From Candidatus Woesebacteria bacterium GW2011_GWB1_33_22 (GTDB lineage Bacteria; Patescibacteriota; Microgenomatia; UBA8517): DNA of 64,000 nt. This document shows, piece by piece, positions 45,114 through 64,000 of this stretch. The stretch spans positions 47,660 through 111,659 of the forward strand of contig LBOW01000001.1 of NCBI GenBank assembly GCA_000989765.1. Reading direction: 5' to 3'. Both the position numbers and the translations under genes were made by a program. The notes beneath the pieces are model-generated. The model saw only the letters and a list, made by a program, of their open reading frames with translations, was not told the DNA's origin and did not search any database. Position 1 is the first letter of the stretch, and each line of letters starts with the position of its first letter.

Positions 45114-45835
45114 AATATCAAACCAAGAATCTTCAGCCACACAGCAAAATCGGTTTATCTTTTATAAGTTTATTAAAACATTATTATCATGTTAGTAATT
45201 TAGATAATTTGAGACAATCTTTGAAAGATGACTTAATCGCCACCATATTTATGGGGTCTGGGAGTGGTATATTTGGATCGTTCATAAGGGGTATGTATTT
45301 TAAGTTATTTTTAAACTATAAACTTCCATCTATGATTGGAAATCGCTTTCGTATTATAAATTCGTCAATGGTTAAGGTTGGTAAGAACTTGTGGATTAAA
45401 GATGATGTTACGATATTTGCGGGGGACAAGATGACAATTGGCGATGGCTGTGTTTTGTGTGATAGATCAAGTATTTGGTCCAGTAAAGACGGTTTAAAAA
45501 TTGGAGATGGATTTTCATTAGGTATAGGTGGATATATCTGTGGAACTGAAGGAAGGATAGCTATAGGTAATAAAGTAATTATGGCTGATAATGTACGTTT
45601 ATACAGTTGGAATCATAGTTTATATTCCAGTTTAAAAACGTTTTCAGAGAATGAAATTTCTCATCGAGGTATTACGATTGGTAACAATTGCTGGCTTGGA
45701 TCTGGATGTGTAATATTAGATGGTGTGAATTTAGGTGATAACTGTGTTGTAGGTGCGGGAGCTGTAGTTACAAAGTCATTTCCTAAAAATTCGTTAATCG
45801 CGGGGGTCCCAGCAAAAGTTGTTAAAACAATATGA
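45101..45835 (+). CDS. hexapeptide-repeat O-acetyltransferase (WcaF/maltose O-acetyltransferase-like)
   Basis: C-terminal GITIGNNCWLGSGCVILDGVNLGDNCVVGAGAVV LbH repeats. Confidence 0.75.
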   Translation: MEKMKYQTKNLQPHSKIGLSFISLLKHYYHVSNLDNLRQSLKDDLIATIFMGSGSGIFGSFIRGMYFKLFLNYKLPSMIGNRFRIINSSMVKVGKNLWIKDDVTIFAGDKMTIGDGCVLCDRSSIWSSKDGLKIGDGFSLGIGGYICGTEGRIAIGNKVIMADNVRLYSWNHSLYSSLKTFSENEISHRGITIGNNCWLGSGCVILDGVNLGDNCVVGAGAVVTKSFPKNSLIAGVPAKVVKTI

Positions 45836-47496
45836 CTAAATTACTAGAATCTTATTTTATATATATTTTATTAGTCGTATCAGTTTTAGTTTGGTTTGTA
45901 TCCTATTCAAAAGTTCCATTTATTTTTTTTCAGCAAGATGAGTTAATGGGGTTTGGTCTTTTTATTCTAAACAGGGTTGATATGTTGTATACGGGCCTTG
46001 GATTTAAAGGAATGGTACATTTTGTGCCGGTCACAATGTCACTTTCCTTCGGAATTTTTAATATTTTTGGCCTAAATCATATTCCTTACAATATATTTGG
46101 GTTGATATTTCACACAATTAATGGACTCCTTGTTTATCTATTGGGTCAAAAGATATTTAAGAATCGTTTATATTCACTCCTTGCTCTGATAATGTTTTTT
46201 TCAAGTAGCTCTGGCGCAGAGTTGGTTATGTGGCCTGTTATAAATTTAAACACAATTTCACTGTCCTTTTCACTCCTTGCTATGTATGTTTTAATCTCAT
46301 CGTATATAAAAGATGGGTATTTACAAATTAAGAAGTCTATTTACATTTCTATATTATTTTTACTCTCTGTTTTCTCAGTAGAATACGCAGCTGGACTTAT
46401 TTTTATCATTCCTGTCACCGCATTTTTAATGGATAGAAAAAATAGTGGAATAAAAAAACTAACTCAAATCTGGCCATTTTATTTAACGGTAATGATATTT
46501 TTAATACTTAGATTTGTTCCCTCTCTTTTTTTAAGAGAATTGAATACCTTAAATTCTGTCCTTGAGACTGGGGTTTTTAGTAGAGCCATGGGTTTAATTC
46601 GATTGCCACTTATTTATGTTTCCCAGACCTTTTTGGGTCAAAATGCATTAATAAACATTTCTCAACTTATATCTAGTGTTTTTTGGGGAAACACAACAAA
46701 CACTCAATTTGCAGAGGGGGTCATTTATAAATATGTAGCGTCCGTATTGGGAGTATTTATTGTTATTATTTTTCTAAAGTTGTTTTCGAAATTTACTAAA
46801 TTAGATAAAAAATATTTATTAATTTTCCTAAGTTTTATTATCTTCTCTTCGCTACCTTTTATCTTAGTTCCTGGACAGTTGTTTTCAATATTTTCATCTA
46901 GGTATTTATATTTTGGTGGTGTTGGGTATGCTTTTATTTTGGTCTTGATATTGCAATTAATTGTAAATCTCAAAAAAAATAGAATTACCCTATTCTATAT
47001 AATATTTTTAGTTTCAATGATCCTCGGTGGAGTATATGGTAATTATAAAAAAGGCAATGCTCTTTATAACATTGGGAACCTGAGGGTTCAAATTTTAAGA
47101 AGTATTAAAAAAGACCATCCAACACTTCCACAAAAAGTTATTTTTTATACAGATAGCAACAAAAGTTATTATGGTTTGCCTGACGAGGATAAGATTCTAC
47201 CTTTTCAGTCTGGTCTAGGGCAAACACTACTTTTATGGTATTATTCAGACGAAAAGTTTTCAAAAAGTTTTTTTAAAAATGAATACCTTTGGGGCATTCT
47301 TTCAGAAGGCTATAAGGAAATTGATGACAGGGGATTAGGGTATTTTAGAGATTTTGAGAGACTTAAAAATGCAGTTAATGATAATAATCTAAATCCCGAA
47401 TCAGTTATAGCATTTAAGTGGGATTATTATACTAATACATTAACTGACACAACAAACGAAGTTAGAAATAAACTTAAGAATGAAAATTATAAATAA
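45832..47496 (+). CDS. polytopic membrane protein, candidate GT-C glycosyltransferase
   Basis: About 13 TM helices; N-terminal loop with FFQQDELMGFG (DE motif); hydrophilic C-terminal about 130 aa. Confidence 0.5.
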   Translation: MTKLLESYFIYILLVVSVLVWFVSYSKVPFIFFQQDELMGFGLFILNRVDMLYTGLGFKGMVHFVPVTMSLSFGIFNIFGLNHIPYNIFGLIFHTINGLLVYLLGQKIFKNRLYSLLALIMFFSSSSGAELVMWPVINLNTISLSFSLLAMYVLISSYIKDGYLQIKKSIYISILFLLSVFSVEYAAGLIFIIPVTAFLMDRKNSGIKKLTQIWPFYLTVMIFLILRFVPSLFLRELNTLNSVLETGVFSRAMGLIRLPLIYVSQTFLGQNALINISQLISSVFWGNTTNTQFAEGVIYKYVASVLGVFIVIIFLKLFSKFTKLDKKYLLIFLSFIIFSSLPFILVPGQLFSIFSSRYLYFGGVGYAFILVLILQLIVNLKKNRITLFYIIFLVSMILGGVYGNYKKGNALYNIGNLRVQILRSIKKDHPTLPQKVIFYTDSNKSYYGLPDEDKILPFQSGLGQTLLLWYYSDEKFSKSFFKNEYLWGILSEGYKEIDDRGLGYFRDFERLKNAVNDNNLNPESVIAFKWDYYTNTLTDTTNEVRNKLKNENYK

Positions 47497-50455
47497 AATT
47501 TGGAATAATTGGCACACAGTAATACTTGTTGCCTTATGTCTTGTTCCAATTATATGGTTTATTGGTAGGGGTGATGTTCTAATTACTGGATTAGACACCA
47601 ATTTCCCACTTGATCCATTAGTTTGGTTTCAGCGGAGATTTTATGTTTGGAATGGCATTAATAATGCTGGAATTGATTTTAGTTCATCAGTTGCAGGAGT
47701 TTTTTTTCATTTTGTTCAACTTGCTCCATATTTATTAGGTTTATCCTTAAAAAATGTAGAAATTGTAAGTTTGGTTTTTTGGTTTTCTGCGATTGTTTCC
47801 TCTTCATATCTTTTAGCAAAGACTATTCTACCTAAAAACAAAACACCTCAATTGATTGTTGTCATTCTTTATATTTTAAACATCTATCTTTTCAATACTT
47901 GGGAGAATGTAAAAGTATCTAACTTAGCTTTGGTCACTGCGTTACCTTTAATTATATCAATTGTCTACAATTGGTTTTCAGAAAAAATAAATTCAAAAAA
48001 AGCAATGATATACCTTTGTCTTGGTTCAATTCTTGCTTCAGGAGCTGGAATAAACCCCGCATATTTTTTAGTAATAATTTTAGCTCTGATAATTGAAACT
48101 GTTGTATATCTTTTTTTAAACCTATCTACAAAAACAGAAATAAAGAAGATTTTAGTAAAAGGGTTAACATCCTTTTTTATATTGATTTTAGTTAATATAT
48201 TTTGGATATTTCCACTTTTAAATTTTTTATATTCTACTAATACCATTAGTTTGGTTGATATAGGACTAACCAATTGGATTACTAGTTTATCTCAAAATAC
48301 ATCGATAATTAATGTTATACGCTTACAAGGGGCATGGGATTGGTATGCCTTAGATAGTAGCGGAATACCTCAATATCTTTCTTACACACTAAATTATTTG
48401 TATAAATTTCCGTTTATTATTTTTAGCTTTGCTGTTCCAATATTGGTATTATTTTCATTTGTTTTTTTTGATAAAGAACAAAAATTTTGGTATATTTTTT
48501 TTGGAATACTAACGGTATTGGGAATATTTTTTGGTGTGGGGTCACACCCACCAACAGGATCCTTTTTCATTTTCCTATTTGAACATGTACCATTCTTATC
48601 TTTTTTTAGAAGCCCTTGGTACATTTTTACTCCACTTTTAACTCTTTCATATGCAGCTTTAGTGGGATTATTAACATATTCGTTCTTTCAAAAATATAAA
48701 GAAGGAATGATTAAACATATATTTAATTTTTTAATTATTATATTTTTGATAGCTTATGGATTATATAATTATCCATTAATTACTGGAAAAATTTTTAGAC
48801 CTGAAAGTAAAAATAGTTTCTATGTTTATTTTCCAGAATATGTATGGGATACAAAAGATTGGTTGAGTAACAAACATGATTCAACTGATGAAAGAATAAT
48901 TTCATATCCCGACGATCAATTAGAGTCATTTAATTGGGGCTATCAAGGTACTGAATCAATTTTAAGTTTATATTCTAACAGAGAAATTATTACACCATCA
49001 TTTAATATGACATCAAAAGTTTTTTCAGAAATGTTAGGTTCCTTTTATGCACATATAAAAAGAGGTGAATATAAATCTGCTATTTCGTTAATGGAATTTT
49101 TTGGTGCTAATGAAATTTTTTATAAAAAAGACTCTTCAACTTTATCCTCCCCGATAGGAGATAAAATAAATGATTTGGTTGAGACAACTAAATTTGGAGA
49201 ATGGTATTTTATGCGTCCAAAAGACGAGATGAATAAAAAAATATTTATTGCGGAAGCAGTTTACAAGAATTTATCTAATCCGGAAGATTTTATTCCTGTA
49301 ATTCCATTTTTAAAACCCAAGAGTGTTGTTGTTAACAATAAAGATACTGAAATTGGACAAATTAAATCAAATGAAAGATTTTTTTCGATTATTAAAACTG
49401 GAATATTGGACCAAGATAAAAGTATATTAACTAATGTTAACAAATATGGACTAGATATATTACGCAATGGAACATTTAATATTCTGATTGAAAGAAATTA
49501 TTTAGATCGAAATAGTCTCATTGTAAAAATTGATTCAAATGTAATTAGTAATTCATTGATTCAATATGATCAAAGTTTGATTAGTGTAGGCCCAGTTAAA
49601 CTATTTTCAGGAACACATACTATTGAAATTGTTTATCCAGTACAAGAAAATTTATTGGCAATTTCTGATTTCGAAAATATTTCAAAAAACCAAAATCTAA
49701 GAAAAGAAGAATTTCCAGAGAATATTCAAAAAACTTTATTAGTATACAATGAAAGTAAAGAAGCTCAAAAAATAATTTTACCAGTAAATGAATTTAATCC
49801 CTATTTAAGGTATGCTGTAGGATTTGATTATAAATATGTGTATGGAAAAGTGCCATTTGTTGAAGTTTTACAATCTGCCCCGACTTCTCCAGTAAAAAAT
49901 CATTCGATTTATCCAGGTTCTTCTACTGATTGGCAGACTCGTTATGACATTTTCAGACCGGTTGAAACAAATTCTAAATTAGAACTTCTGATTAAAGCTG
50001 GACCAAATGAATTTTCTGGTAGAAGTAAATCTTTTATAGAAAATATATTTATAAAAAGAATTTATGACAATAATGTATATCTTGTAGAATCTAATTCTGA
50101 TACTTCTTTTAAATATTTGTCTAAAGGTGAACTAAAGTATAAAAAAATTAATTCGGTAAAGTATGAAGTTGAGTTGAAAAGTGATGGGGATAATCAATTG
50201 GGTAGTGTAATAGCATTTTTAGATAATTACAACAAAGGTTGGGTTTTAAAGTCTTCTGATTCAAAAATAGAAAATAAATTTAGTCACTTTACGATTAACG
50301 GTTATGCAAACGGTTGGTATGTACCTGCAGGAATGAATACTGGTAAGTTTATTATCTATTATCGTCCACAGACTTTATATATATTCGCAGTTTTAGTCTC
50401 AGTTTGTACAATTATGTTATTAATTATTTACAGTTTACATAAAAAGAAATCTTAA
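47480..50455 (+). CDS. AftD/DUF3367-like large GT-C membrane glycosyltransferase (alpha-(1->3)-arabinofuranosyltransferase family architecture)
   Basis: N-terminal GLDTNFPLDPLVWFQRRFYVWNGINNAGIDFSS resembles the DTK.DL..DP...l.r...W signature of DUF3367/AftD proteins. About 13 TM helices, a roughly 550-aa extracytoplasmic region and a C-terminal TM anchor. Confidence 0.6.
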   Translation: MKIINKIWNNWHTVILVALCLVPIIWFIGRGDVLITGLDTNFPLDPLVWFQRRFYVWNGINNAGIDFSSSVAGVFFHFVQLAPYLLGLSLKNVEIVSLVFWFSAIVSSSYLLAKTILPKNKTPQLIVVILYILNIYLFNTWENVKVSNLALVTALPLIISIVYNWFSEKINSKKAMIYLCLGSILASGAGINPAYFLVIILALIIETVVYLFLNLSTKTEIKKILVKGLTSFFILILVNIFWIFPLLNFLYSTNTISLVDIGLTNWITSLSQNTSIINVIRLQGAWDWYALDSSGIPQYLSYTLNYLYKFPFIIFSFAVPILVLFSFVFFDKEQKFWYIFFGILTVLGIFFGVGSHPPTGSFFIFLFEHVPFLSFFRSPWYIFTPLLTLSYAALVGLLTYSFFQKYKEGMIKHIFNFLIIIFLIAYGLYNYPLITGKIFRPESKNSFYVYFPEYVWDTKDWLSNKHDSTDERIISYPDDQLESFNWGYQGTESILSLYSNREIITPSFNMTSKVFSEMLGSFYAHIKRGEYKSAISLMEFFGANEIFYKKDSSTLSSPIGDKINDLVETTKFGEWYFMRPKDEMNKKIFIAEAVYKNLSNPEDFIPVIPFLKPKSVVVNNKDTEIGQIKSNERFFSIIKTGILDQDKSILTNVNKYGLDILRNGTFNILIERNYLDRNSLIVKIDSNVISNSLIQYDQSLISVGPVKLFSGTHTIEIVYPVQENLLAISDFENISKNQNLRKEEFPENIQKTLLVYNESKEAQKIILPVNEFNPYLRYAVGFDYKYVYGKVPFVEVLQSAPTSPVKNHSIYPGSSTDWQTRYDIFRPVETNSKLELLIKAGPNEFSGRSKSFIENIFIKRIYDNNVYLVESNSDTSFKYLSKGELKYKKINSVKYEVELKSDGDNQLGSVIAFLDNYNKGWVLKSSDSKIENKFSHFTINGYANGWYVPAGMNTGKFIIYYRPQTLYIFAVLVSVCTIMLLIIYSLHKKKS

Positions 50456-50839
50456 ATGATTAGATCTTATTTATTTAAATTATTTAATAAAAAGTATGAC
50501 AATTTAAATCAATGGGCAATAGACCATTTGGTTGGATTATTTATTTTTAATATAATCATGTCTTTGCTTGTGTTGCTTAACACTGCTGAATATTTCAAAC
50601 CATTTTTTTTCTTAGGAATAAATGTAATTTTTTTCATTGGGCTGATATTATCCATACCTCTTCTCGGAGCAAGGTCAAAATCTATGTTTTTTATATCAAT
50701 AATTTTTTTAGTTTTTGCTATTTTTTTAAAAATATTAAAGATTGAAATTTGGGCAGAGAGAACAGCTGTTTATACTTTTCAATCTTTACTTATAGGAGTT
50801 ATTTTACTAACAAGGGAATCAATCAATAAACATTGGTAA
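50456..50839 (+). CDS. small 4-TM membrane protein
   Basis: 127 aa with four hydrophobic helices; start immediately after the upstream stop. Confidence 0.4.
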   Translation: MIRSYLFKLFNKKYDNLNQWAIDHLVGLFIFNIIMSLLVLLNTAEYFKPFFFLGINVIFFIGLILSIPLLGARSKSMFFISIIFLVFAIFLKILKIEIWAERTAVYTFQSLLIGVILLTRESINKHW

Positions 50840-52170
50840 AATTTATTGTAAATAATTACAAAAAATATATTTTTGTTTTTTTTATTGTTTATTTACTTAT
50901 TTTTACCGTATTTTACTCTGAAACGACTAAACCAAAAGGTGATGAAGTTCATTATTTAATTGCCACAGAAAGCATAGTGAGAGATAACGATATTTACCTA
51001 GAAAATAATTATCCAGATGGTGTTACAAGCATGTTTGGTTATTTAAAATTAGATAAACATACAGTAATAGGGAGGGGAAATCATGAAATTTTAGGTCACG
51101 GTTTAACAATATTTCCTTTTATAATTGCACCCTTTTACTTTGCGGCTGGAAAATTAGGTGCAAGTTTGTTTTTTTGCTTGATTACTGTTATTTTGTTTCA
51201 ACAAACTATTAAATTTTCTGAGTTGGTAACTAATAGTCACTTAACTAGTTGGGTTGTGTGCCCAGGTTTGTTTTTAACACTTCCATTGTCACAATATTCA
51301 CTTCTTTTATTTCCAGAGGTCATTGCTGGTTTATTGATTGTTTATAATCTATGCGAAGTTATTACTAAAAATAAACTAGGCATTTTATCAGCTATTCTTA
51401 TAGGATTATTGCCCTGGATACATTTTAGGTTTTTGACTGTGTCAATATTTTTTTTATTATTCTGGTTTAGTAGGCAGTTTAAAAAAATCACTAAGCAATT
51501 TTTCTTGCCATTAATATTGATTTTTGTTTATTTTCTCTCGATATTTTTAATATACGGCAGTTTCGATTTTAATAAAACTTTTATGAACTCTGGGAGCGCG
51601 TATTCAGGTAATATTATATCTAATATTATTAATTTATTGATAGATAGACAATATGGTTTGATTCCAAATAACCCCATATTTTTATTAGTACTTCCCGGAT
51701 TTTATTTTTTGTTTAGAAGTAATAAAAAAAAGGCTTTATTAATTATTGCTCTTATATTTTTTGAGATTATGCCATTTATTAATTCAAATGATTGGCATGG
51801 AGGTTTTGCACCACCAGGAAGGTATTTAACAGCGGTAGTTCCAATTATTATACCTTTAATTGTTTTATCTATTACTAAAAGTAGATATTTTTTAACAAAA
51901 ACGATATTTTTATTAGGGTTTATGTGGGGGTATTTTGTATATATTATTAATTTGTTACAGTCTCCAAACTATGGGTATTTATATAAAGATGGTTTTACTC
52001 CGTATTTAAATAAAATATCAATTTGGTCAAATTTATATTTTTATTATTTGTTTCCAAGTTATTTTCCGGATGGAAAGATAACTGTTCTTCATTGGATTTG
52101 GATTTGCACAATACTAATAATTAGTTATCTGGTATTTAAAAAAGGAGGGAAAGTTAAGACAAAAGCTTAA
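50833..52170 (+). CDS. GT-C fold membrane glycosyltransferase (ArnT/PMT_2-like)
   Basis: KPKGDEVHYLIATESIVRDND (DE motif of PMT_2/ArnT-type GT-C) in the first loop; about 12 TM helices. Confidence 0.55.
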   Translation: MVKFIVNNYKKYIFVFFIVYLLIFTVFYSETTKPKGDEVHYLIATESIVRDNDIYLENNYPDGVTSMFGYLKLDKHTVIGRGNHEILGHGLTIFPFIIAPFYFAAGKLGASLFFCLITVILFQQTIKFSELVTNSHLTSWVVCPGLFLTLPLSQYSLLLFPEVIAGLLIVYNLCEVITKNKLGILSAILIGLLPWIHFRFLTVSIFFLLFWFSRQFKKITKQFFLPLILIFVYFLSIFLIYGSFDFNKTFMNSGSAYSGNIISNIINLLIDRQYGLIPNNPIFLLVLPGFYFLFRSNKKKALLIIALIFFEIMPFINSNDWHGGFAPPGRYLTAVVPIIIPLIVLSITKSRYFLTKTIFLLGFMWGYFVYIINLLQSPNYGYLYKDGFTPYLNKISIWSNLYFYYLFPSYFPDGKITVLHWIWICTILIISYLVFKKGGKVKTKA

Positions 52171-52182
52171 TCTTAATTATTT

Positions 52183-52353
52183 ATGTATAATTGTAGTGTG
52201 AATAATATCTCAAAAATATTAATAGGCTTATCTTTTTTAGGTTTTTTAATAATAGGCTTTTTACTTTTAACTAACCACCTCGGATTAGCGACCAAAATAT
52301 CTGGTTATATATTTTTTATATTGATTCTTGGTATATGCTTAAAAACAAACTAA
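52183..52353 (+). CDS. possible small two-TM peptide (56 aa), unannotated in the ORF track
   Basis: ATG at 52183 gives MYNCSVNNISKILIGLSFLGFLIIGFLLLTNHLGLATKISGYIFFILILGICLKTN, with two clear hydrophobic helices. It fills the only sizeable gap (52171-52334) in a run of same-strand genes. No strong RBS. Confidence 0.2.
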   Translation: MYNCSVNNISKILIGLSFLGFLIIGFLLLTNHLGLATKISGYIFFILILGICLKTN

Positions 52354-54836
52354 CTCAAATCTTATATATATTATTAATTATTTTACCAGTTATTGTTGTT
52401 TTTAAAAATATTTTTTATATTTACCCCTTTAGTTTTGGAGATGCGCCATATTTTTATACGGACACTTTAGCAAGTCTATTATCAGAACCTTTAATATGGG
52501 TAACTCGAGGTGTTAATTTTGGAGGTATTAACCAATTTCTATGGCTTTCGCCCATTATGGCTATTTATGGCTTTTTAGGTAAATACTTACTATTAGACAA
52601 TCAAATAATTGTTCGTATTCTTTTTTATATACCAGCAGTAATATTGTCTATTCTCGGTCCATATATTTTAACTAAATATTTGAACTTTTCAAAAACAGTT
52701 TCATTTTTTTCATCTTTGTTTTATTGCTTAAACACGTATTTTATATTACTAATTGATGGTGGACAGGTGGGCGTAGCTTTGGCTTATGGAATTTTTCCTA
52801 TTGTTTTGTATTTTATTAAAAAATATATTGATGTTTCAAATACAACGAACTTTTTTTGGGCATATGTTTTTGGAATGTTACTTTGCATAATTGATCCCAG
52901 AATATATATCATTTTGTTTTCTTTATTAGCAATATGGAGTTTTTTAAGAAGAGAGTCTTTAAAGCCATTATTTGTTTTACAAATTCCAATATTACTATCC
53001 AATTTATATTGGCTTTATCCAATGATCAAAATAAAGCCAATAAATGTAAGTTATTCGGTACTGGATCTACAGACATCTTCTTTAATAAATTCGCTTTTGC
53101 TTTATGCCCCCCATTGGCCAAATAATATTTTTGGTAAAATAGTACCTCCCTTATTTTACTTTTCTATTATCCCCATTTTAGTGTTTGGGTTTTTGTTTTT
53201 TAAAGACAGACACAAAGATATTAAGAAGCTAGTAATATTATTTCTAATTTTTGCCTTTTTGGCTAAAGGTACGACACCTCCATTTGGAGAGATATATGAT
53301 TTTATTTTGACCAAGATACCCTTGATGGTAGCTTTTCGTGACTCTAGTAAATTTTTTATACCCTTAACATTGTTGGGTGGAATTTTAATAGGAGAAACTA
53401 TCGATAAGTTGAAAATGATAAAATTCATTAAAATAATTACTTATACAATAATATTATTACTTGTTTGGCAAGCTATATTCGGAAAATTGAATTTTAATTT
53501 GTCGGGAAGAATCTTAAACGATGATATGGGTAAAATTTATTCTAATTTAAAAAATGAACAAGGAGAATATAAAACATTATGGTTTCCTGAAAAGCACCCT
53601 ATGGCATATGAATCTTTTGATAAACCAGCTCTAGACGCAAGAGACCTTATTAAAATTAATACTATTTCGTCTGTCAATGTCTCCGAGGACCCTTTTAATT
53701 TCTTAAATGATATAAATTTTCCGATAAAATTAGCTAAACTTGGAATTAAATATATATTTTTATCAGGAGATCCGAGGAATGTTTATCCAAGTGAAGATGA
53801 TCTAAAAAGATGGTCTACAGTTTCAAAATTAATAAGCAACAACCCCAACCTTAAGCCAGTAAATTGGAATACAAGTTTTCAAATATTTGAAGTTCCTGAT
53901 TTTTTACCTAAGTTTTATAAAGTTCACGATTTAATTGGAGCTGTTGGACCTCATCTTCCCTCAGATATGCCAGCTGTTTATTTTGAAGACGGGAAATTTG
54001 ATCCGAGGTTTCTAGAAAATAAAGACTCAAATTCAGTTAAATTATTATTTAATAATTCTGTAGAACAGGATCTTACTATGAGTTTTCTACAAAAATATTT
54101 CGTTGATACTGGTAATGCAAAAACAAATGAATGGGCATATTATTCAGCGGATAAGTATCTCAAGGCAAAATACGAATTATTAATCCGGAATTTTATATAT
54201 GATGATTTTGATTACAGCAAAGGACTATCATTTTCAACAAAAATGGGTGAAAAAATTGAATTTAATTTTAAAAACTTAGACTTAGGAGAATATGTTTTAG
54301 CTGTTCGCAGGATGAATGAATTAAACAAATTTGAATGGAAAATAATTAATCATTCACTTAATATTAAAGATAAAGATTTTAGTTACGAATATATAAATGA
54401 AAAAGATTTTGATGCCGTAAATGTTATAGCATTAATTCCTAAAAAAGATTTTGAAGAAGCAGAAAAATTAGGTCAACACCATATAGCCTATTTTGGAGTG
54501 ATCAAAAACGATAAAAACTATAGTTATAAATGGGATACTGTTTCTATAGTTAATGAAGACACTTCCAAATATTTGTTAACGACAGACAAATATGGTTTTT
54601 GGTTAATTCTAAATGAAAATTATAATCCATTATGGACTATTCGTAATGGGGAAAAATATTCTAATTCTATTCCAATTAATTCAGAAGTTAATGGTTTCTA
54701 TTTTGAACCAACATGGAATGATTTACATATTGAATTTAAAGGTCAGGAGTATTTTAGATGGGGATTATATTATGCATTTATTTCTGTATCATTAACGTTG
54801 ATAATATTATTATATTTACATATTAAGAATGAATAA
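52335..54836 (+). CDS. large polytopic membrane protein with about 470-aa extracytoplasmic C-terminal domain and C-terminal TM anchor; candidate GT-C-like
   Basis: About 12 N-terminal TM helices (SFGDAPYFYTD first loop), long hydrophilic region, final TM helix YYAFISVSLTLIILLYL. Confidence 0.5.
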   Translation: MLKNKLTQILYILLIILPVIVVFKNIFYIYPFSFGDAPYFYTDTLASLLSEPLIWVTRGVNFGGINQFLWLSPIMAIYGFLGKYLLLDNQIIVRILFYIPAVILSILGPYILTKYLNFSKTVSFFSSLFYCLNTYFILLIDGGQVGVALAYGIFPIVLYFIKKYIDVSNTTNFFWAYVFGMLLCIIDPRIYIILFSLLAIWSFLRRESLKPLFVLQIPILLSNLYWLYPMIKIKPINVSYSVLDLQTSSLINSLLLYAPHWPNNIFGKIVPPLFYFSIIPILVFGFLFFKDRHKDIKKLVILFLIFAFLAKGTTPPFGEIYDFILTKIPLMVAFRDSSKFFIPLTLLGGILIGETIDKLKMIKFIKIITYTIILLLVWQAIFGKLNFNLSGRILNDDMGKIYSNLKNEQGEYKTLWFPEKHPMAYESFDKPALDARDLIKINTISSVNVSEDPFNFLNDINFPIKLAKLGIKYIFLSGDPRNVYPSEDDLKRWSTVSKLISNNPNLKPVNWNTSFQIFEVPDFLPKFYKVHDLIGAVGPHLPSDMPAVYFEDGKFDPRFLENKDSNSVKLLFNNSVEQDLTMSFLQKYFVDTGNAKTNEWAYYSADKYLKAKYELLIRNFIYDDFDYSKGLSFSTKMGEKIEFNFKNLDLGEYVLAVRRMNELNKFEWKIINHSLNIKDKDFSYEYINEKDFDAVNVIALIPKKDFEEAEKLGQHHIAYFGVIKNDKNYSYKWDTVSIVNEDTSKYLLTTDKYGFWLILNENYNPLWTIRNGEKYSNSIPINSEVNGFYFEPTWNDLHIEFKGQEYFRWGLYYAFISVSLTLIILLYLHIKNE

Positions 54837-57921: not shown

Positions 57922-59424
57922 TTATTTTTCTAATTCCAGATTATCATAAATCCTAGAAAGGACAACTCCATGCCAATCGTTTATATAAATTGGTTTTTTA
58001 TTATTAAAATAAATTATTTCTTCCAAATTTGGGCTTAATAATTTCATTGATTCTTCAACAATTACAAACCTTTCTGTTTTCCAATCTGTTGAAATAGTAA
58101 CATTTGTGTAGTAAGGCAAAGTACTTTTACTACATCCCAAGTATGCAACAGATTTGATATCAGGGTATTTATTTATGAGATTTAAAATTGAAGATCGTGC
58201 TCCCATACATAAACCTATTACTTCATTAGATTGTACAATTTTAGGTCCTCCAGAAAATATGTTTCTATAAATATAGTAATTGGGGAAGTAAAAAAGTGAG
58301 ACTGTAGATGAGATCGCAAATATGCTTATTATAGCTATAGTTTTATAAAACTTATGTAATTTATTTAGAAAATAATATATTGAAATTCCAGAAAATAGGT
58401 ATAACCAAGGAATAACTGGGAAGATGTATCTAATTCCAAGTTTTTTTGCTGGAATAGAAAGTATGAGTATATATGAGATTACAAATAACGGAATAATAAT
58501 AGTTAATAACTTTTTGTTCTTTAATATCTTTTTTTTAACAAATATCGGGTAAAAAAGTAGTGAGCTAATTATTATTATGGGTAATCTAGTTAAGATCTGT
58601 TGTACATAGTAATAAAAAGGTGGATTACTTGTTATTTTCCCATTAAAAAAAGTTATAAAAGAGTTATTTGATAATTGAAATTGGTTAAAAATATATGAAT
58701 ACATATCAATTATAATATTTCCTTCCTGCCCAAGCCAAAGTAATTTTGCAAAAACTAAAAAGCAAAAAAAAGTAATTATTGTTTTGTACTGTTTAGATAA
58801 AAAAAGAGGAATAAATAAGATTAAACCAGTAGGTTTAGTTAAAAAGGCAAGACTTATAAATATCGATGAGACAATAATAGATATTTTTATATTTTTTATT
58901 AAAAAAAAGCTTGATATTGCTAAAAACATCCAAATAGTAAGCGGATAGTCAACAAGTAACCACCTGGATAATGCGATCGATGTAGGATCAATTGATAAAA
59001 GAAGACTGGCAAGTAGTGCAATATATTTATTATTGGTTATCCTTTTTGTTATGAAATAAAAAATTGCTATAAAAATAGAAGTTAAAAATACAATCGGAAT
59101 TCTGGCGGCAATGAAGTCGCTAAATAATTCAAGTGAATAATGTGTTGGTTGACCCTTAGCTAATAAGAATATTGATGCACCAGATATAATAGTTTGTGGC
59201 AAATTAATAGCTTCTGTATCGGTATCTTTTGTCCACCATGCTGACTTGAAATAGTCAAAATTATTAGTTTTAATTGCTAAAAATGCCTCTCTACTTCTGA
59301 CTGTCCAAGTGATTTCATCGGGATATATCTCAGTTGACGTTAGATTATATGAACGAAAAAGAAGAGAAATCAAGAAAATTGCAGTAGGAAATATCACATT
59401 TGACAAAAGTTTTCTCTTTTTCAT
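57922..59424 (-). CDS. GT-C fold membrane glycosyltransferase (ArnT/PMT_2-like)
   Basis: EIYPDEITWTVRSREAFLAI DE motif after the first TM helix; about 12 TM helices. Confidence 0.6.
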   Translation of the reverse strand: MKKRKLLSNVIFPTAIFLISLLFRSYNLTSTEIYPDEITWTVRSREAFLAIKTNNFDYFKSAWWTKDTDTEAINLPQTIISGASIFLLAKGQPTHYSLELFSDFIAARIPIVFLTSIFIAIFYFITKRITNNKYIALLASLLLSIDPTSIALSRWLLVDYPLTIWMFLAISSFFLIKNIKISIIVSSIFISLAFLTKPTGLILFIPLFLSKQYKTIITFFCFLVFAKLLWLGQEGNIIIDMYSYIFNQFQLSNNSFITFFNGKITSNPPFYYYVQQILTRLPIIIISSLLFYPIFVKKKILKNKKLLTIIIPLFVISYILILSIPAKKLGIRYIFPVIPWLYLFSGISIYYFLNKLHKFYKTIAIISIFAISSTVSLFYFPNYYIYRNIFSGGPKIVQSNEVIGLCMGARSSILNLINKYPDIKSVAYLGCSKSTLPYYTNVTISTDWKTERFVIVEESMKLLSPNLEEIIYFNNKKPIYINDWHGVVLSRIYDNLELEK

Positions 59425-59451: not shown

Positions 59452-60273
59452 ATGAAGATTTGGGCACATACATTAGTTAAAAACGAGGAAAAGTTTGTAT
59501 GGTATTCAGTCATGTCAATTATTAGTCATGTGGAGAAAGTTTTACTTTGGGACACTGGGAGTACTGACAATACACCTGAAATTTTAAAAGAATTAAAAAG
59601 AAGATATCCAAATAAAATTGACCTTAATTTTTTAGGTAATGTTACAGTAGATGAATTTACTGAAATTAGACAGCAAATGTTAAATGTTACTAAATCGGAT
59701 TGGTTTATAGTTTCCGATGCTGATGAAATTTGGTGGCAGGATTCAATTGCGACATTATCAACAGCAATTCGTGATAGAGGGTTAAGTGTTGAATCAATTT
59801 ACACTCCTGCAGTTTTATTAGTAGGTGATATGTTTCATTTTCAAGAAGAACGTGCGGGAAATTATAAATTAGGGGGTCAAAAAGGCCATTTTGGACTAAA
59901 AGCCATTAATAGAAATATTTCAGGGCTTTCCTCACTAAATCCTCACGGTTCTTGGGGTTGGGTTGATGGAGATAAAAAAATGGTACAGGATAGAGATCCA
60001 CAAAAACTATTGTTTGTTAATGCACCGTTTATGCATGCTTCTTTTTTGCAAAGATCTCAGAGTAGATTGTTAGATAACAAAGTTCCCAAAAGGAAAAAAA
60101 AGTATAAATTTGAATTTGGTGATAGGTTTCCATTGGACTATTTCTATCCTGAAGTTTTTTTTCAACCAAGGCCAGATTTTGTTGATAGTGTTTGGCAAAC
60201 AACAAATTTTGGCTTTAAATTTAAAGCTTTTTTTCAAACACCATTTAAAAAGATTAAAAGAAGACTAATATGA
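59452..60273 (+). CDS. GT-A fold (family 2-like) glycosyltransferase, soluble
   Basis: HTLVKNEEKFV...LLWDTGSTDNTPEIL...IVSDADEIW (NEE / DxGSxD / DAD motifs). Confidence 0.5.
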   Translation: MKIWAHTLVKNEEKFVWYSVMSIISHVEKVLLWDTGSTDNTPEILKELKRRYPNKIDLNFLGNVTVDEFTEIRQQMLNVTKSDWFIVSDADEIWWQDSIATLSTAIRDRGLSVESIYTPAVLLVGDMFHFQEERAGNYKLGGQKGHFGLKAINRNISGLSSLNPHGSWGWVDGDKKMVQDRDPQKLLFVNAPFMHASFLQRSQSRLLDNKVPKRKKKYKFEFGDRFPLDYFYPEVFFQPRPDFVDSVWQTTNFGFKFKAFFQTPFKKIKRRLI

Positions 60274-60953
60274 ATAAGACCAATTATAAAAAATACCACA
60301 GAGATGACACATATTTGGAAAATGAAAGTCTTTTTAGGAATATTTTTCAAAAAAGATATACCTTAATTTCAAAATATATCGAAAGTCCTTCAAAAGTATT
60401 AGATATTGGTTGCTCAAATGGGGTATTTTTAGATTTGTATATGGAGAGTGAAACTTGGGGGGTAGAGCCTTCACAAAATGCTCATAAAATAAATAAAAAA
60501 CATAAAGTTATTAATTCAACTTTTGAGATAGCAAAACTGCCATTAAATTATTTTGACTTGGTAATAATGAATCACACACTGGAACATCTAAAAAGACCAA
60601 GTGATGTTTTAACAAAGATTAAATCATTACTTAAAAAAGACGGCATAGTATTTATAGATGTGCCTAATGTCGGGAGTTTATCCTCCAAAATTTTGGGCAA
60701 TAAATGGCCATATTTATTGCCAGAGGAACATCTTTGGCAATTTGATAAAAAAAGTATTACTAAACTTACTAAAGATGCTGGATTTGAAGTTCTTCATTGG
60801 GAATCAAGATCCGGAATTTTTGAATATACAAATCCTTTTCTGGAATTAAAAAGGAAGAGATTTTTAATTGATATTTTAACTATTCCTTATGCTTTAATTG
60901 CTACCATTTTTAATATGGGGGATAGTATGAGTATCGTTGCAATGAAACAATGA
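60270..60953 (+). CDS. class I SAM-dependent methyltransferase with C-terminal hydrophobic segment
   Basis: VLDIGCSNGVFLD...FDLVIMNHTLEHL...LKKDGIVFIDVPN; C-terminal LIDILTIPYALIATIF. Confidence 0.75.
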   Translation: MNKTNYKKYHRDDTYLENESLFRNIFQKRYTLISKYIESPSKVLDIGCSNGVFLDLYMESETWGVEPSQNAHKINKKHKVINSTFEIAKLPLNYFDLVIMNHTLEHLKRPSDVLTKIKSLLKKDGIVFIDVPNVGSLSSKILGNKWPYLLPEEHLWQFDKKSITKLTKDAGFEVLHWESRSGIFEYTNPFLELKRKRFLIDILTIPYALIATIFNMGDSMSIVAMKQ

Positions 60954-61171
60954 AAAAAGTAAAAAAATGCGATTTTCAAATAGAAGGTGAATGGGGGAGC
61001 AGACATCAGTTATGTTCTTGTGTAGGAAAGGAAGGTGAAGAAGGTAACTGTTTAAAACAACAAATCGCTGAAGGTAAAGTTAAGTTAGTTAAAGGACATG
61101 GTCCATACGATGAAGTGTGCGAAGGCCGTTGTTTACAAGAACAAATTAAACGAAGAACTCAGGAAGGTTAA
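60950..61171 (+). CDS. small Cys-rich, Glu/Gly/Lys-rich protein (73 aa), unknown function
   Basis: ORF in ATGA overlap with the upstream MTase. Six Cys (CDF, CSC, NC, VC, RC). Local GC content and codon choice are visibly different from surrounding genes. Confidence 0.4.
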   Translation: MKKVKKCDFQIEGEWGSRHQLCSCVGKEGEEGNCLKQQIAEGKVKLVKGHGPYDEVCEGRCLQEQIKRRTQEG

Positions 61172-61743
61172 TCATAAGTTTATCTATGGTTGAAAACAAT
61201 ATTGTATTTATATTTAATTTTTTAGCTGATTCAATATTATTATCTTGATTATCAATAAATAACATTTCCCTCGGTTTAATTTTAAGATCATCTAATACAT
61301 ATTTAAAAATTCTCGAATTTGGCTTTGAAATTCCAAGTTGTGAAGAACAATAAAGTTTGTCAAATATTCTTTCTAATTTAAATTTTTGAATTTTTGACAA
61401 ATAAATATCATCAGAATCATTAGCTATCATTACTATTTTATAATTTTTAATTAATTTTTTAATTATATTTAATAGTTTTTTGTCTATCCATATCGCTTCA
61501 TAATATTTGTTACTTAAAATAACTGGATTTATTTTTTTGAGAGATATTTTTGATACTTCAACCCAAAATTGTTTCATCGTTTTTACCCCAATCTTTAATT
61601 CGGGCCAATGATCCTCAAAAATTTTTTGAAGAATGATCTTTGTCAAAACCTGTTAATTTGAGGATATTTTTAAAAGTATTATTCCAGTCATTAGCATCAG
61701 GACCTAGTACTCCACCAAAATCAAAAGCAATAACTTTTATCAT
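61146..61743 (-). pseudogene. HAD-superfamily hydrolase interrupted by a frameshift in an A5/T6 homopolymer run (or sequencing error)
   Basis: Minus-strand ATG at 61743 encodes MIKVIAFDFGGVLGPDAND (HAD motif I, DxG) and runs to a stop at 61615-61617. The main ORF 61146-61646, in a different frame, carries the distal HAD motifs (GISKPNSRIF, FIDNQDNN). The frames meet at caaaaatttttt (61616-61627). Confidence 0.5.
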
Positions 61744-61766: not shown

Positions 61767-63440
61767 TTAATATTTAAATGGTTCGTATTTAAAATCGACA
61801 AATTTAGTATCATTTTTTATATTTACTTGTCTTGTTTTTTCTGTTGTTTCAAGTACTTTAGTTTTTTCTTTGCCATTTAAATAAGCATTCCAATTTGGAT
61901 TATAAACTTCTGGAATTACTAGTTTGTCAGTTTCGTTTTGTATTATTACCCGTATAAAATTTGGTTTATATATTTCATAATTTGGTTTTTTATATAGTAA
62001 ATTTTCATAAATATCATAATTATCAATTGTTTTTACTAATTTTAGATTATCTCTGCTAATTTTATATGGAGATATTATATATTTAATACGATATTCAGCT
62101 AGAACTGGTGGATATGGCTTGAATTTTTCATGCAAATAATTTTGAAAAGGTGGAATTGATAAAGAGTATTTTTTATCCCAGTAGCCTTGTGTAATTTGTT
62201 GGCTGTATTCAAAATAATTTTTTTGCTGTAAAGTGCCATATCCTTCGACCAATTCAATATTATTAATTGCTGCGTCTTTTTGTCGAATACATTTTGTTAA
62301 ACAAAAAACACGATATATATCCACATCCTCTGTTAAGAATGCAATAATTCCAGGTGGTGTTGATTCTACAAGTTTAATAGGCTTACTAAATATATATTTT
62401 CCTATTAATAAATATTCGATTAATGAAAGTAATCCGAACACAAGAAGTAGCTTCTTATTTTTAGAAGTCAAATAATCTAACCCTTTTGCAGCTAAATACA
62501 TAGTAATTATTATTATAGGAAACCAAAATCTAGTCGAAACTCTAAATAATATAAACCAATCAAAAGTTAAGATATTTAATGCTAAAATCGAAATGGTAGC
62601 CACAGAAATAAAAACATAAATTTTATTTTTAGTAGTTGACTTAATATATCCCAGAGTTGCAAGTATAAATACGACGATACCAAAAGTTATATTTTTTTCT
62701 GTATCCCTAGTTGCAATAAATATATTTTTAATAAATTCTCTTTTACCATTCCAAACAGGATAAGTTTCTGGGCTCTGTAGTAAAAACTCTCTGGTAGTCA
62801 ATTCTTGCCATCTAAGTTGCGGAGTCAATATAGGTAAACTTATCAATAGCAATATTAAATGGCTAAGTAAGAACAACGAAAATGATTTTTTGTTTCTATA
62901 TAAAAAGAATACCCCATTGGTTACGAGTAAAATTAGAAAAATTAATATATGGCTGGTATAAACTAAATATAAAAAGAGTGATAAAAGAAGGATTGATTTT
63001 AAACTCTTCTTTTGAATTAGGTTTATTGTTGACCAGTAAACCCAAGGTATAAATGCCCATGATTGAATAAGACCAAGGTGTCCAGCTTCTAAATATGAAA
63101 AGAATTTTGGAGAGAGAGAAAACAATATTGCGATAATAAGACTGGTTTTTTGTGTAACACTGTTTATTTTAAGCAAGAAATACATACCAAGACCGGCAAT
63201 AATCATGTGAATTAAGATTGAAATTAAAATTCCAGTATCAATCGGAAGAAGCAAGAAAATAATATTTAGCGGGTAAATAAATAAATTTTGAGGATCAGGT
63301 AAAAGTGGTGTACCTGAAAAAAACATCTTGTTCCATAAGGGAATTCCGTCTCCAGATAACAATTGTTCTTTTATGTAATAAATTAATGGCCAGAAAAACT
63401 CAGTTAGGTCATTATTTCGATTTAGTATAAAATTAAACAT
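61767..63440 (-). CDS. YfhO-family polytopic membrane protein (GT-C-like glycosyltransferase)
   Basis: N-terminal FWPLIYYIKEQLLSGDGIPLWNKMFFSGTPLLPDPQNLFIYPLN...IHMIIAGLGMYFLLK resembles the YfhO signature. About 14 TM helices, hydrophilic C-terminus. Confidence 0.6.
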   Translation of the reverse strand: MFNFILNRNNDLTEFFWPLIYYIKEQLLSGDGIPLWNKMFFSGTPLLPDPQNLFIYPLNIIFLLLPIDTGILISILIHMIIAGLGMYFLLKINSVTQKTSLIIAILFSLSPKFFSYLEAGHLGLIQSWAFIPWVYWSTINLIQKKSLKSILLLSLFLYLVYTSHILIFLILLVTNGVFFLYRNKKSFSLFLLSHLILLLISLPILTPQLRWQELTTREFLLQSPETYPVWNGKREFIKNIFIATRDTEKNITFGIVVFILATLGYIKSTTKNKIYVFISVATISILALNILTFDWFILFRVSTRFWFPIIIITMYLAAKGLDYLTSKNKKLLLVFGLLSLIEYLLIGKYIFSKPIKLVESTPPGIIAFLTEDVDIYRVFCLTKCIRQKDAAINNIELVEGYGTLQQKNYFEYSQQITQGYWDKKYSLSIPPFQNYLHEKFKPYPPVLAEYRIKYIISPYKISRDNLKLVKTIDNYDIYENLLYKKPNYEIYKPNFIRVIIQNETDKLVIPEVYNPNWNAYLNGKEKTKVLETTEKTRQVNIKNDTKFVDFKYEPFKY

Positions 63441-63482: not shown

Positions 63483-64000
63483 ATGAAAAAAGTTATTTTA
63501 ATTAGCCTTATTTTTATACATTTATATTTACTTTTAAACTTGAAGTTTACACCTTGGCCAGAAATGCTATCTTTCCCATATCTTTTCTCAAATGGGTTTA
63601 CTTTGTATAAAGACTTTATAATTCCATATCCTCCATTTTTAGTTATTTTATTAAGTATAATTTATAAAATATTTGGTTATAAAATATTGGTTTTGAAAAT
63701 ATTTACATGGGCTTTAATATTATTGACTGACCTATTTATTTACAAGATTGTAGATCTTGTGACAAAGAAAAAGTCTTTTGCACTCATTTCAGTTGCAGTT
63801 TTTGTTTTTATTCAGCCCTTTTTGGATGGTAATATGCTTTGGTTTGATACTTTTTTAGTATTACCTGTTTTAGTTTCAGTCTTTTTTTTGCTACAGGATA
63901 AAAATATTAACAAAAACATTTTATTAGCTGGTGTTTTTTTGGCAATTTCAATTTTTAGTAAACAAACTGCCTTAATATATCTTTTAGTTTCCACAATATT
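63483..64000 (+). CDS. polytopic membrane protein, GT-C-like (3' partial at window edge)
   Basis: MKKVILISLIFIHLYLLLNLKFTPWPEM... with multiple TM helices; the ORF runs off the window. Confidence 0.5.
   Translation, partial: MKKVILISLIFIHLYLLLNLKFTPWPEMLSFPYLFSNGFTLYKDFIIPYPPFLVILLSIIYKIFGYKILVLKIFTWALILLTDLFIYKIVDLVTKKKSFALISVAVFVFIQPFLDGNMLWFDTFLVLPVLVSVFFLLQDKNINKNILLAGVFLAISIFSKQTALIYLLVSTI

Follow-up and report, generated by a model that had tools for sequence, protein, structure and literature searches.

A small Cys-rich protein gene coupled to a methyltransferase gene in a Woesebacteria glycosylation island

Results

In a 64,000-nt stretch of DNA from Candidatus Woesebacteria bacterium GW2011_GWB1_33_22 (referred to herein as the window, meaning the whole stretch that was analyzed), we found that a short open reading frame (ORF) overlapping the end of a methyltransferase (MTase) gene is a genuine protein-coding gene, a conclusion about which we have next to no doubt. 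It encodes a Cys-rich protein of 73 amino acids (aa) and is co-transcribed and start/stop-coupled with the MTase gene. Its product has four invariant Cys residues and accompanies only a few copies of a glycosylation module made up of a GT2 glycosyltransferase, the MTase, and a GT-C membrane glycosyltransferase. We tentatively propose that the protein is a putative metal-stabilized mini-domain acting as an optional accessory of this module. The features at the center of the analysis are the following.

60950..61171, + strand: small Cys-rich protein gene, 73 aa plus stop
60950..60953, + strand: ATGA start/stop overlap of the small ORF with the MTase gene, read from the sequence
60270..60953, + strand: class I S-adenosylmethionine (SAM)-dependent methyltransferase, 227 aa (PF13489 Methyltransf_23, E = 2e-30)

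The small ORF is a protein-coding gene under purifying selection

The exact 73-aa translation quoted in the initial annotation was reproduced from the ORF at 60950-61171 (+). Its length provides no evidence for a gene, since the ORF list holds many spurious ORFs of 40 to 123 aa nearby. We scored all frames with a codon model trained on the window's own genes, and the in-frame coding score was +15.3 bits, or 0.21 per codon (0.18-0.38 for the window genes), while the five other frames gave -38 to -98 bits. An exhaustive HMMER scan covering 1.84 billion representative proteins yielded two homologues of 76 aa each (P0003 and P0004; contigs and proteins that were compared carry L and P labels, respectively), and a profile search added a third of 77 aa (P0006). 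These homologues are 45-49% identical to the window protein and align with it from end to end with in-frame indels only, and 27 positions are invariant across the four family members. At the nucleotide level the sequences share 58-65% identity, and the differences fall mostly at third codon positions. Pairwise dN/dS values were 0.26-0.50 at dS of 0.24-1.6. Taken together, the frame-specific signal, the kept frame, and dN/dS below 1 identify a protein-coding gene under purifying selection.

We weighed this against the possibilities that the ORF is spurious or that the stretch separating two convergent genes is non-coding or forms a structured RNA. The ORF is short, has no family assignment, and lies in AT-rich sequence, where chance ORFs of similar length are common. 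However, chance does not explain coding statistics that are specific to one frame, nor amino-acid conservation retained at such low nucleotide identity with no indel out of frame. For a structured RNA, the fold z-score was only -1.44 and Rfam returned no match. We therefore give this alternative a negligible chance of being correct. The initial annotation had suggested a genuine small gene closely coupled to the MTase, and had named absence from related genomes as what would count against it; the coding score and the conservation bear the suggestion out, and three homologues occupy the same position downstream of an MTase gene.

The family is very small. Its four known members come from uncultured low-GC (~30%) bacteria with closely related gene neighborhoods, and two of the sources are named groundwater metagenomes. 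Public databases list a protein identical to that of the window under the name hypothetical protein A2130_03720 (Candidatus Woesebacteria bacterium GWC2_33_12). The 73-aa gene is found on ~30 near-identical aquifer-metagenome contigs, six of which match the window base for base around the ORF, and its tryptic peptides include CDFQIEGEWGSR and GHGPYDEVCEGR. Pattern scans of metagenome and viral collections with the profile of the small protein found no loci.

Two further candidates were set aside. P0005 (1228 aa) is an Ala/Glu-rich repetitive protein that matched over 33 residues only, a low-complexity artifact. P0002 (58 aa, 84% identity) is a junction-contig artifact of the same genome and not an independent homologue. 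It derives from the 804-bp contig L001 (ENA ERZ909591 / SRR1658472), in which window positions 60841-61065 are joined to 60197-60786, so that an 11-nt identity, AAACAACAAAT, links the middle of the small ORF (61065) to the GT2 3' end (60197). Such an arrangement is expected either from a ~0.86 kb tandem duplication encompassing the MTase gene and half of the small ORF or from an assembly or read chimera. The small ORF and the GT-C gene at 63483 share their first 11 nt, a match that is not significant (E = 2.6) because many window genes start with ATGAAAAAAG.

The gene is coupled to the methyltransferase gene

As had been noted initially, the ATG of the small ORF overlaps the TGA of the gene at 60270-60953, which encodes a class I SAM methyltransferase. 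The nearest solved relatives of this MTase are putative methyltransferases and the sugar C-methyltransferase TcaB9. In 4/4 family members, the small gene starts at or overlaps the stop codon of the orthologous MTase gene. The junction reads TAATG in both L014 and L016. In L015 the overlap is 17 nt, and there the stop codon of the small gene in turn overlaps the ATG of the gene that follows, which encodes a PMT_2-like GT-C membrane glycosyltransferase. A promoter and terminator scan gave counts equal to chance and no terminator. The small gene is co-transcribed and start/stop-coupled with the MTase gene, and coupling by reinitiation is plausible. The missing Shine-Dalgarno (SD) motif at the small gene is normal here, since only 5 of the 52 window genes have an SD-like motif within 25 nt upstream of their starts. 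We also considered whether the ORF could be a programmed frameshift extension of the MTase, and rejected this as every homologue begins with an ATG of its own and its frame with respect to the MTase varies between loci.

TATAAT-like hexamers lie 7-15 nt before the ATG of many window genes (e.g., at 939, 1433, 5510, 12550, and 57922-59424(-)). Together with the low number of SD motifs, this suggests widespread leaderless or very short-leader mRNAs.

Anatomy of the protein

The protein contains 6 Cys, 10 Glu plus 7 Gln (23%), and 10 Gly (14%), in agreement with the composition reported initially. Also as reported initially, it has neither a transmembrane helix nor a classical signal peptide: Kyte-Doolittle hydropathy over 19 residues peaks at -0.23, and since there is no hydrophobic segment the protein is predicted to be soluble and cytoplasmic. 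Four of the six Cys residues (C7, C22, C34, and C61) are invariant across the family and are spaced C-x14-C-x11/13-C-x26/28-C; C24 is present in three members and C57 in the window protein only. Conservation is concentrated in three blocks, each of which has a Cys.

60968..61018, + strand: conserved block 1, residues 7-23, C7-D-F-x-I-x-G-x-W-G-S...C22-S (from the alignment)
61043..61066, + strand: conserved block 2, residues 32-39, G-x-C34-L-K-x-x-I, first GxCL copy (from the alignment)
61124..61156, + strand: conserved block 3, residues 59-69, G-x-C61-L-x-E-x-I-K-R-R, second GxCL copy plus basic tail

Blocks 2 and 3 form an internal repeat built on GxCL. The basic tail IKRR is invariant, and the last 12 residues carry a net charge of +5 to +6 in three members and of only +1 in the window protein.

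We used the 4-sequence alignment for two AlphaFold2 (AF2) runs that differed in the member taken as the target, and obtained low-confidence models (pLDDT 53.5 and 47.5). Both predict an N-terminal hairpin, with strands at 5-13/16-24 in the window protein and 2-12/15-25 in P0006, that sets the first two invariant Cys residues opposite each other (7:22 and 6:21, respectively). They likewise agree on a C-terminal helix that begins at the last Cys (helix 61-72 in the window protein), and the predicted order of elements at this low confidence is E-E-H-E-H, that is, hairpin, helix, strand, and helix.

No known family accounts for the protein, as the initial annotation had found without database searches. 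Pfam, NCBIfam, PHROGs, and PADLOC scans of all four members gave no match, and a sequence profile search of the PDB returned nothing at E <= 10. A match to S4 in the family-library scans (E = 0.12, one member only) was taken as chance. While a small Cys-rich accessory coupled to an enzyme gene is a known kind of protein, this sequence family is unclassified and extremely small.

The raised GC content follows from the protein's composition

The ORF had been described as compositionally atypical and possibly a recently acquired gene. Its GC content is indeed elevated, at 36.5% compared to 29.4% for the window, which places it in the top 3.6% of 222-nt windows. However, the GC1/GC2/GC3 values of 0.54/0.35/0.20 locate the excess at codon position 1 (0.54 versus a gene mean of 0.37) with a slight contribution at position 2; Glu, Gly, Val, and Gln codons account for the position-1 excess. 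At the third position, the GC3 of 0.203 matches the mean of 0.214 +/- 0.024 for 50 window genes. We compared the ORF with 5000 recodings of the same peptide in which codons were drawn from the genome's own usage, and its synonymous-codon log-likelihood of -83.9 fell at the 51st percentile (-84.3 +/- 7.2 in the recodings), so the claim of atypical codon usage does not stand. The codons named in support of that claim belong to a run at 61114-61128, GTG TGC GAA GGC CGT, in which 4 of 5 are rare (shares within their synonymous sets are GTG 0.10, TGC 0.29, GGC 0.09, and CGT 0.09) and which immediately precedes the last invariant Cys. This run is local, and the gene overall is not atypical.

The homologous ORFs have a GC content of 35.5-39% on 30%-GC contigs. 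Since they show the same excess, the excess is a property of the protein's composition, and the raised GC is a consequence of a Glu/Gly/Gln/Val/Cys-rich protein rather than of foreign origin. Recent acquisition of a foreign gene would account for the GC difference and for the patchy occurrence of the gene among related loci, but the third-position and synonymous usage are those of the genome, the GC excess stems from amino-acid choice, the homologues occupy the same slot in related contigs of 30% GC, and no viral, PHROG, or defence-system relatives were found. We regard such an origin as highly improbable. Gain or loss among related lineages is possible, whereas recent import from a compositionally different donor is contradicted by these data.

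A putative accessory of a GT2 - MTase - GT-C module

The window is a cell-surface glycosylation island that holds GT1, GT2, and PMT/PMT_2 GT-C glycosyltransferases, flippases, aminotransferases, epimerases, acetyl- and carbamoyl-transferases, and seven methyltransferases. Two of its genes form a module together with the MTase gene.

59452..60273, + strand: GT2 glycosyltransferase, 273 aa (PF00535), first gene of the module, with a 4-nt overlap with the MTase start
63483..64000, + strand: start of a 441-aa PMT_2-like GT-C membrane glycosyltransferase, a gene that directly follows the MTase in most relatives

A metagenome scan with the MTase profile found 65 further loci, with ~40 full-length orthologues at 40-65% identity. 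The orthologous loci share a conserved core of GT2 - MTase - GT-C in which the GT2 gene lies upstream of the MTase gene in most cases, the MTase stop often overlaps the GT-C start, and the module is mostly uninterrupted. The module (GT-C of ~445 aa) is present in >40 metagenome loci (L008 and L017-L058), many of them from groundwater. L008 (CAYITS010000021.1) is labeled 'uncultured Gammaproteobacteria bacterium', but its genes are ordered as in the CPR-type (Candidate Phyla Radiation) module and its MTase is essentially identical to those of two Hainich groundwater contigs, L023 and L024; the label is probably a binning error.

We tentatively favor a model in which the small protein is a Cys4 metal-stabilized mini-domain. 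The four invariant Cys residues are compatible with a metal site. In this model, the fold would consist of the N-terminal beta-hairpin followed by two short helices, each starting with a GxCL motif. C7 and C22 would face each other across the hairpin while C34 and C61 would sit at the helix starts, and together they would coordinate a single structural metal ion, with Zn as the likeliest candidate. Synthesized along with the MTase through termination-reinitiation, the protein might then serve the GT2 - MTase - GT-C module as an accessory or adaptor subunit that is dispensable and specific to certain lineages, and its basic tail (IKRR...) could contact an anionic partner such as a phosphate-bearing lipid, a nucleotide-sugar substrate, or an acidic protein surface. 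The working principle would resemble that of small zinc-binding MTase partners such as Trm112, without membership in that family. This account is the one to which we assign roughly one chance in three.

Several results weigh against it. On the structural side, the confidence of the AF2 models is low in both runs (53.5 and 47.5), and a Foldseek search of the PDB with these low-confidence models gave no match below E = 1, the best (E = 1.1) being to unrelated structures; the zinc-ribbon-like fold that the initial annotation had thought worth checking by AlphaFold was not recovered. Furthermore, no CxxC or CxxH knuckles typical of Zn sites occur among the conserved residues. Zinc-ribbon and rubredoxin-like Cys4 domains have two CxxC (or CPxC) knuckles, whereas the family has no conserved CxxC pair; the window protein alone has C57-x3-C61, and C57 is not conserved. 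On the genomic side, hmmsearch with the small-protein profile against six-frame translations found the small gene in 0 of the 65 MTase loci, and it is also absent from L008. In a neighbor-joining tree of the MTase (no bootstrap), L017 clusters with the window, and L018, L019, L026, and L029 cluster with L015. None of these five partner loci has the small gene, and the carriers are not monophyletic. Other genes are inserted at the same MTase/GT-C junction, including a kinase-like ORF of ~320 aa in L018, L037, L041, and L036, a 161-aa ORF in L020, L027, and L028, and a GT1 in L043, and the adjacency may reflect a permissive insertion slot rather than a functional partnership. Since the GT2 - MTase - GT-C module is found without the small protein, the latter is not an obligate subunit. 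The small gene is a rare, patchily distributed accessory insert at the MTase/GT-C junction.

The same Cys residues and tail would also suit a small zinc-finger-like, nucleic-acid-binding regulator that controls the glycosylation operon or binds its mRNA. Four invariant Cys, an invariant basic IKRR tail that is strongly charged in three members, small size, and cytoplasmic location are all in keeping with this idea. On the other hand, the gene is flanked by enzyme genes, with start and stop codons that overlap, an arrangement not usually seen for regulators, no helix-turn-helix or match to a known DNA- or RNA-binding family was found, and the tail of the window protein carries a net charge of only +1. 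A regulator therefore appears unlikely.

The small protein as a possible modified peptide

We also considered a ribosomal acceptor peptide, leaderless and akin to ribosomally synthesized and post-translationally modified peptides, whose GxCL Cys (or Ser/Thr) residues are glycosylated by the GT2 and/or methylated by the MTase. The protein is small and Cys- and Gly-rich, carries the G-x-C-L motif twice, has the patchy distribution of an accessory gene, and is translationally coupled to a SAM methyltransferase. The GT2 itself lends some weight to the idea. Its only NCBIfam match is TIGR04195, the SunS family of peptide S-glycosyltransferases, and its only sequence relatives of solved structure are GmaR, 7msk, and SunS (E = 5e-5 to 0.07), which we take to be protein or peptide glycosyltransferases, 7msk being ThuS.

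Yet the SunS match reaches 26.3 bits against a cut-off of 350 and spans residues 7-104 only. The matches to SunS, GmaR, and 7msk all lie within the N-terminal ~115 residues, the nucleotide-binding part, and at 273 aa versus ~420 the GT2 has no C-terminal peptide-binding domain. The GT2 and MTase pair is kept in ~35 orthologous loci without the peptide and therefore has some other main substrate. The protein has no double-glycine leader, and the 52 window ORFs include no ABC transporter or exporter, C39 peptidase or C39-peptidase ABC exporter, thioredoxin-like protein, radical-SAM enzyme, or thiol-disulfide oxidoreductase. Lastly, conservation in three blocks is what would be expected for a folded domain rather than a leader/core split, and the Cys spacing is not the Cx6C...Cx6C of glycocins. 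For these reasons we consider a substrate peptide of any such kind to be unlikely. Slightly less probable still is the specific version in which the SunS/ThuS/GmaR-like GT2 S-glycosylates a leaderless intracellular peptide at the GxCL Cys, with methylation by the coupled MTase to follow; if true, it would represent a new kind of ribosomal glycopeptide in ultra-small groundwater (CPR) bacteria, perhaps handed to the GT-C for surface display. The remaining probability goes to a function of some other, unanticipated kind.

Neighboring genes and local rearrangements

Between the small ORF and the GT-C gene, the window carries two genes on the opposite strand.

61146..61743, - strand: convergent HAD-family phosphatase gene with a frameshift; 26 nt at its 3' end overlap the small ORF
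61767..63440, - strand: 557-aa polytopic membrane protein with weak GT-C similarity (from the ORF list and Pfam)

Both separate the small ORF from the GT-C gene in the window, but the 557-aa membrane protein occupies this place in this genome only and is absent from L014, L015, and L016. In L014, a convergent HAD phosphatase gene lies between the small gene and the GT-C gene, with a convergent overlap of 32 nt. In L016, the GT-C gene follows 90 nt after the small gene, and the gap holds HAD-gene remnants: alignment of L016 284-376 with L014 396-1005 shows that short pieces of the HAD 3' end were kept. These remnants indicate that the HAD gene was deleted in that lineage and was not originally absent.

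The window's HAD gene is split by a 1-nt frameshift near 61615-61650. Residues 1-42 of the intact 198-aa homologue in L014 match 61743-61618, and residues 33-198 match 61646-61149 in another frame. The sequence around the small ORF, including the HAD 3' end (to 61421), is identical in six independent contigs, and the split gene calls (166 + 42 aa) are the same in three independent assemblies. Given these identical contigs and repeated split calls, the split in the HAD gene probably marks a true pseudogene or slippage at a T-run.

Elsewhere in the island, five consecutive ORFs of 554, 991, 127, 445, and 833 aa (45832-52170 and 52335-54836, +) have no Pfam match at E <= 0.01.

Discussion

This work adds a verified member to the largely uncharted small proteins of Candidate Phyla Radiation bacteria. 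It defines a four-member family with an invariant Cys4 signature, linked to a GT2 - methyltransferase - GT-C glycosylation module that is widely conserved. Should the protein turn out to be a metal-dependent adaptor or a modified peptide, it would provide a way into the question of how these organisms assemble or decorate their surfaces. For now, we view this as a sound but modest annotation result, in which most of the initial observation was borne out and the suggestion of a foreign, compositionally atypical origin turned out to be wrong.

One parallel in working principle to the model that we favor is Trm112, a small zinc-knuckle partner of class I MTases that is adjacent or fused to them in some bacteria and whose zinc-knuckle fold consists of a short N-terminal helix and a four-stranded antiparallel sheet (PMC6144793). 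Like Trm112 and COG2835 proteins (PF03966), which are small (~60-135 aa), soluble, and often have four Zn-binding Cys, the family described here is small and predicted to be soluble, and its gene adjoins that of a class I MTase, with a start/stop overlap with Methyltransf_23 in all four loci. The shared principle that we propose is that of a co-produced accessory subunit of an MTase. The differences are nonetheless considerable. None of the four members matches PF03966 in Pfam-A at E <= 10 or any NCBIfam entry, the family lacks CxxC-type knuckles, and the hairpin, helix, strand, helix order predicted by the low-confidence AF2 models appears to differ from the Trm112 fold. In addition, the partner is a glycan-pathway MTase while those of Trm112 are related to translation, and the small protein is dispensable in most orthologous modules. 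We rejected membership in the Trm112 family on the basis of sequence and Cys pattern.

Glycocins (SunA/SunS, ThuA/ThuS, and glycocin F) provide a second comparison, as they too pair a small Cys-rich ribosomal peptide with a nearby GT2, and SunS, 7msk, and GmaR are the closest characterized sequence relatives of the GT2 in the window. Unlike the glycocin systems, the locus here has no leader, exporter/peptidase, or oxidoreductase, and the N-terminus of the protein is conserved, with a Cys at residues 5-7. Glycocins have two nested disulfides and paired Cx6C helices, whereas the spacing here is C-x14-C-x11/13-C-x26/28-C. The GT2 lacks a C-terminal substrate-binding domain, scores far below the SunS cut-off, and is conserved where the peptide is absent.

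Lastly, the order GT2 - (MTase) - PMT_2-like GT-C resembles that of three-component glycosylation modules (GtrB/GtrC, PMT-type), in which a polyprenyl-phosphate-sugar GT2 is paired with a GT-C. To our knowledge, no small Cys-rich soluble protein belongs to such modules. In contrast, the module described here carries one as an optional insert, present in four lineages.

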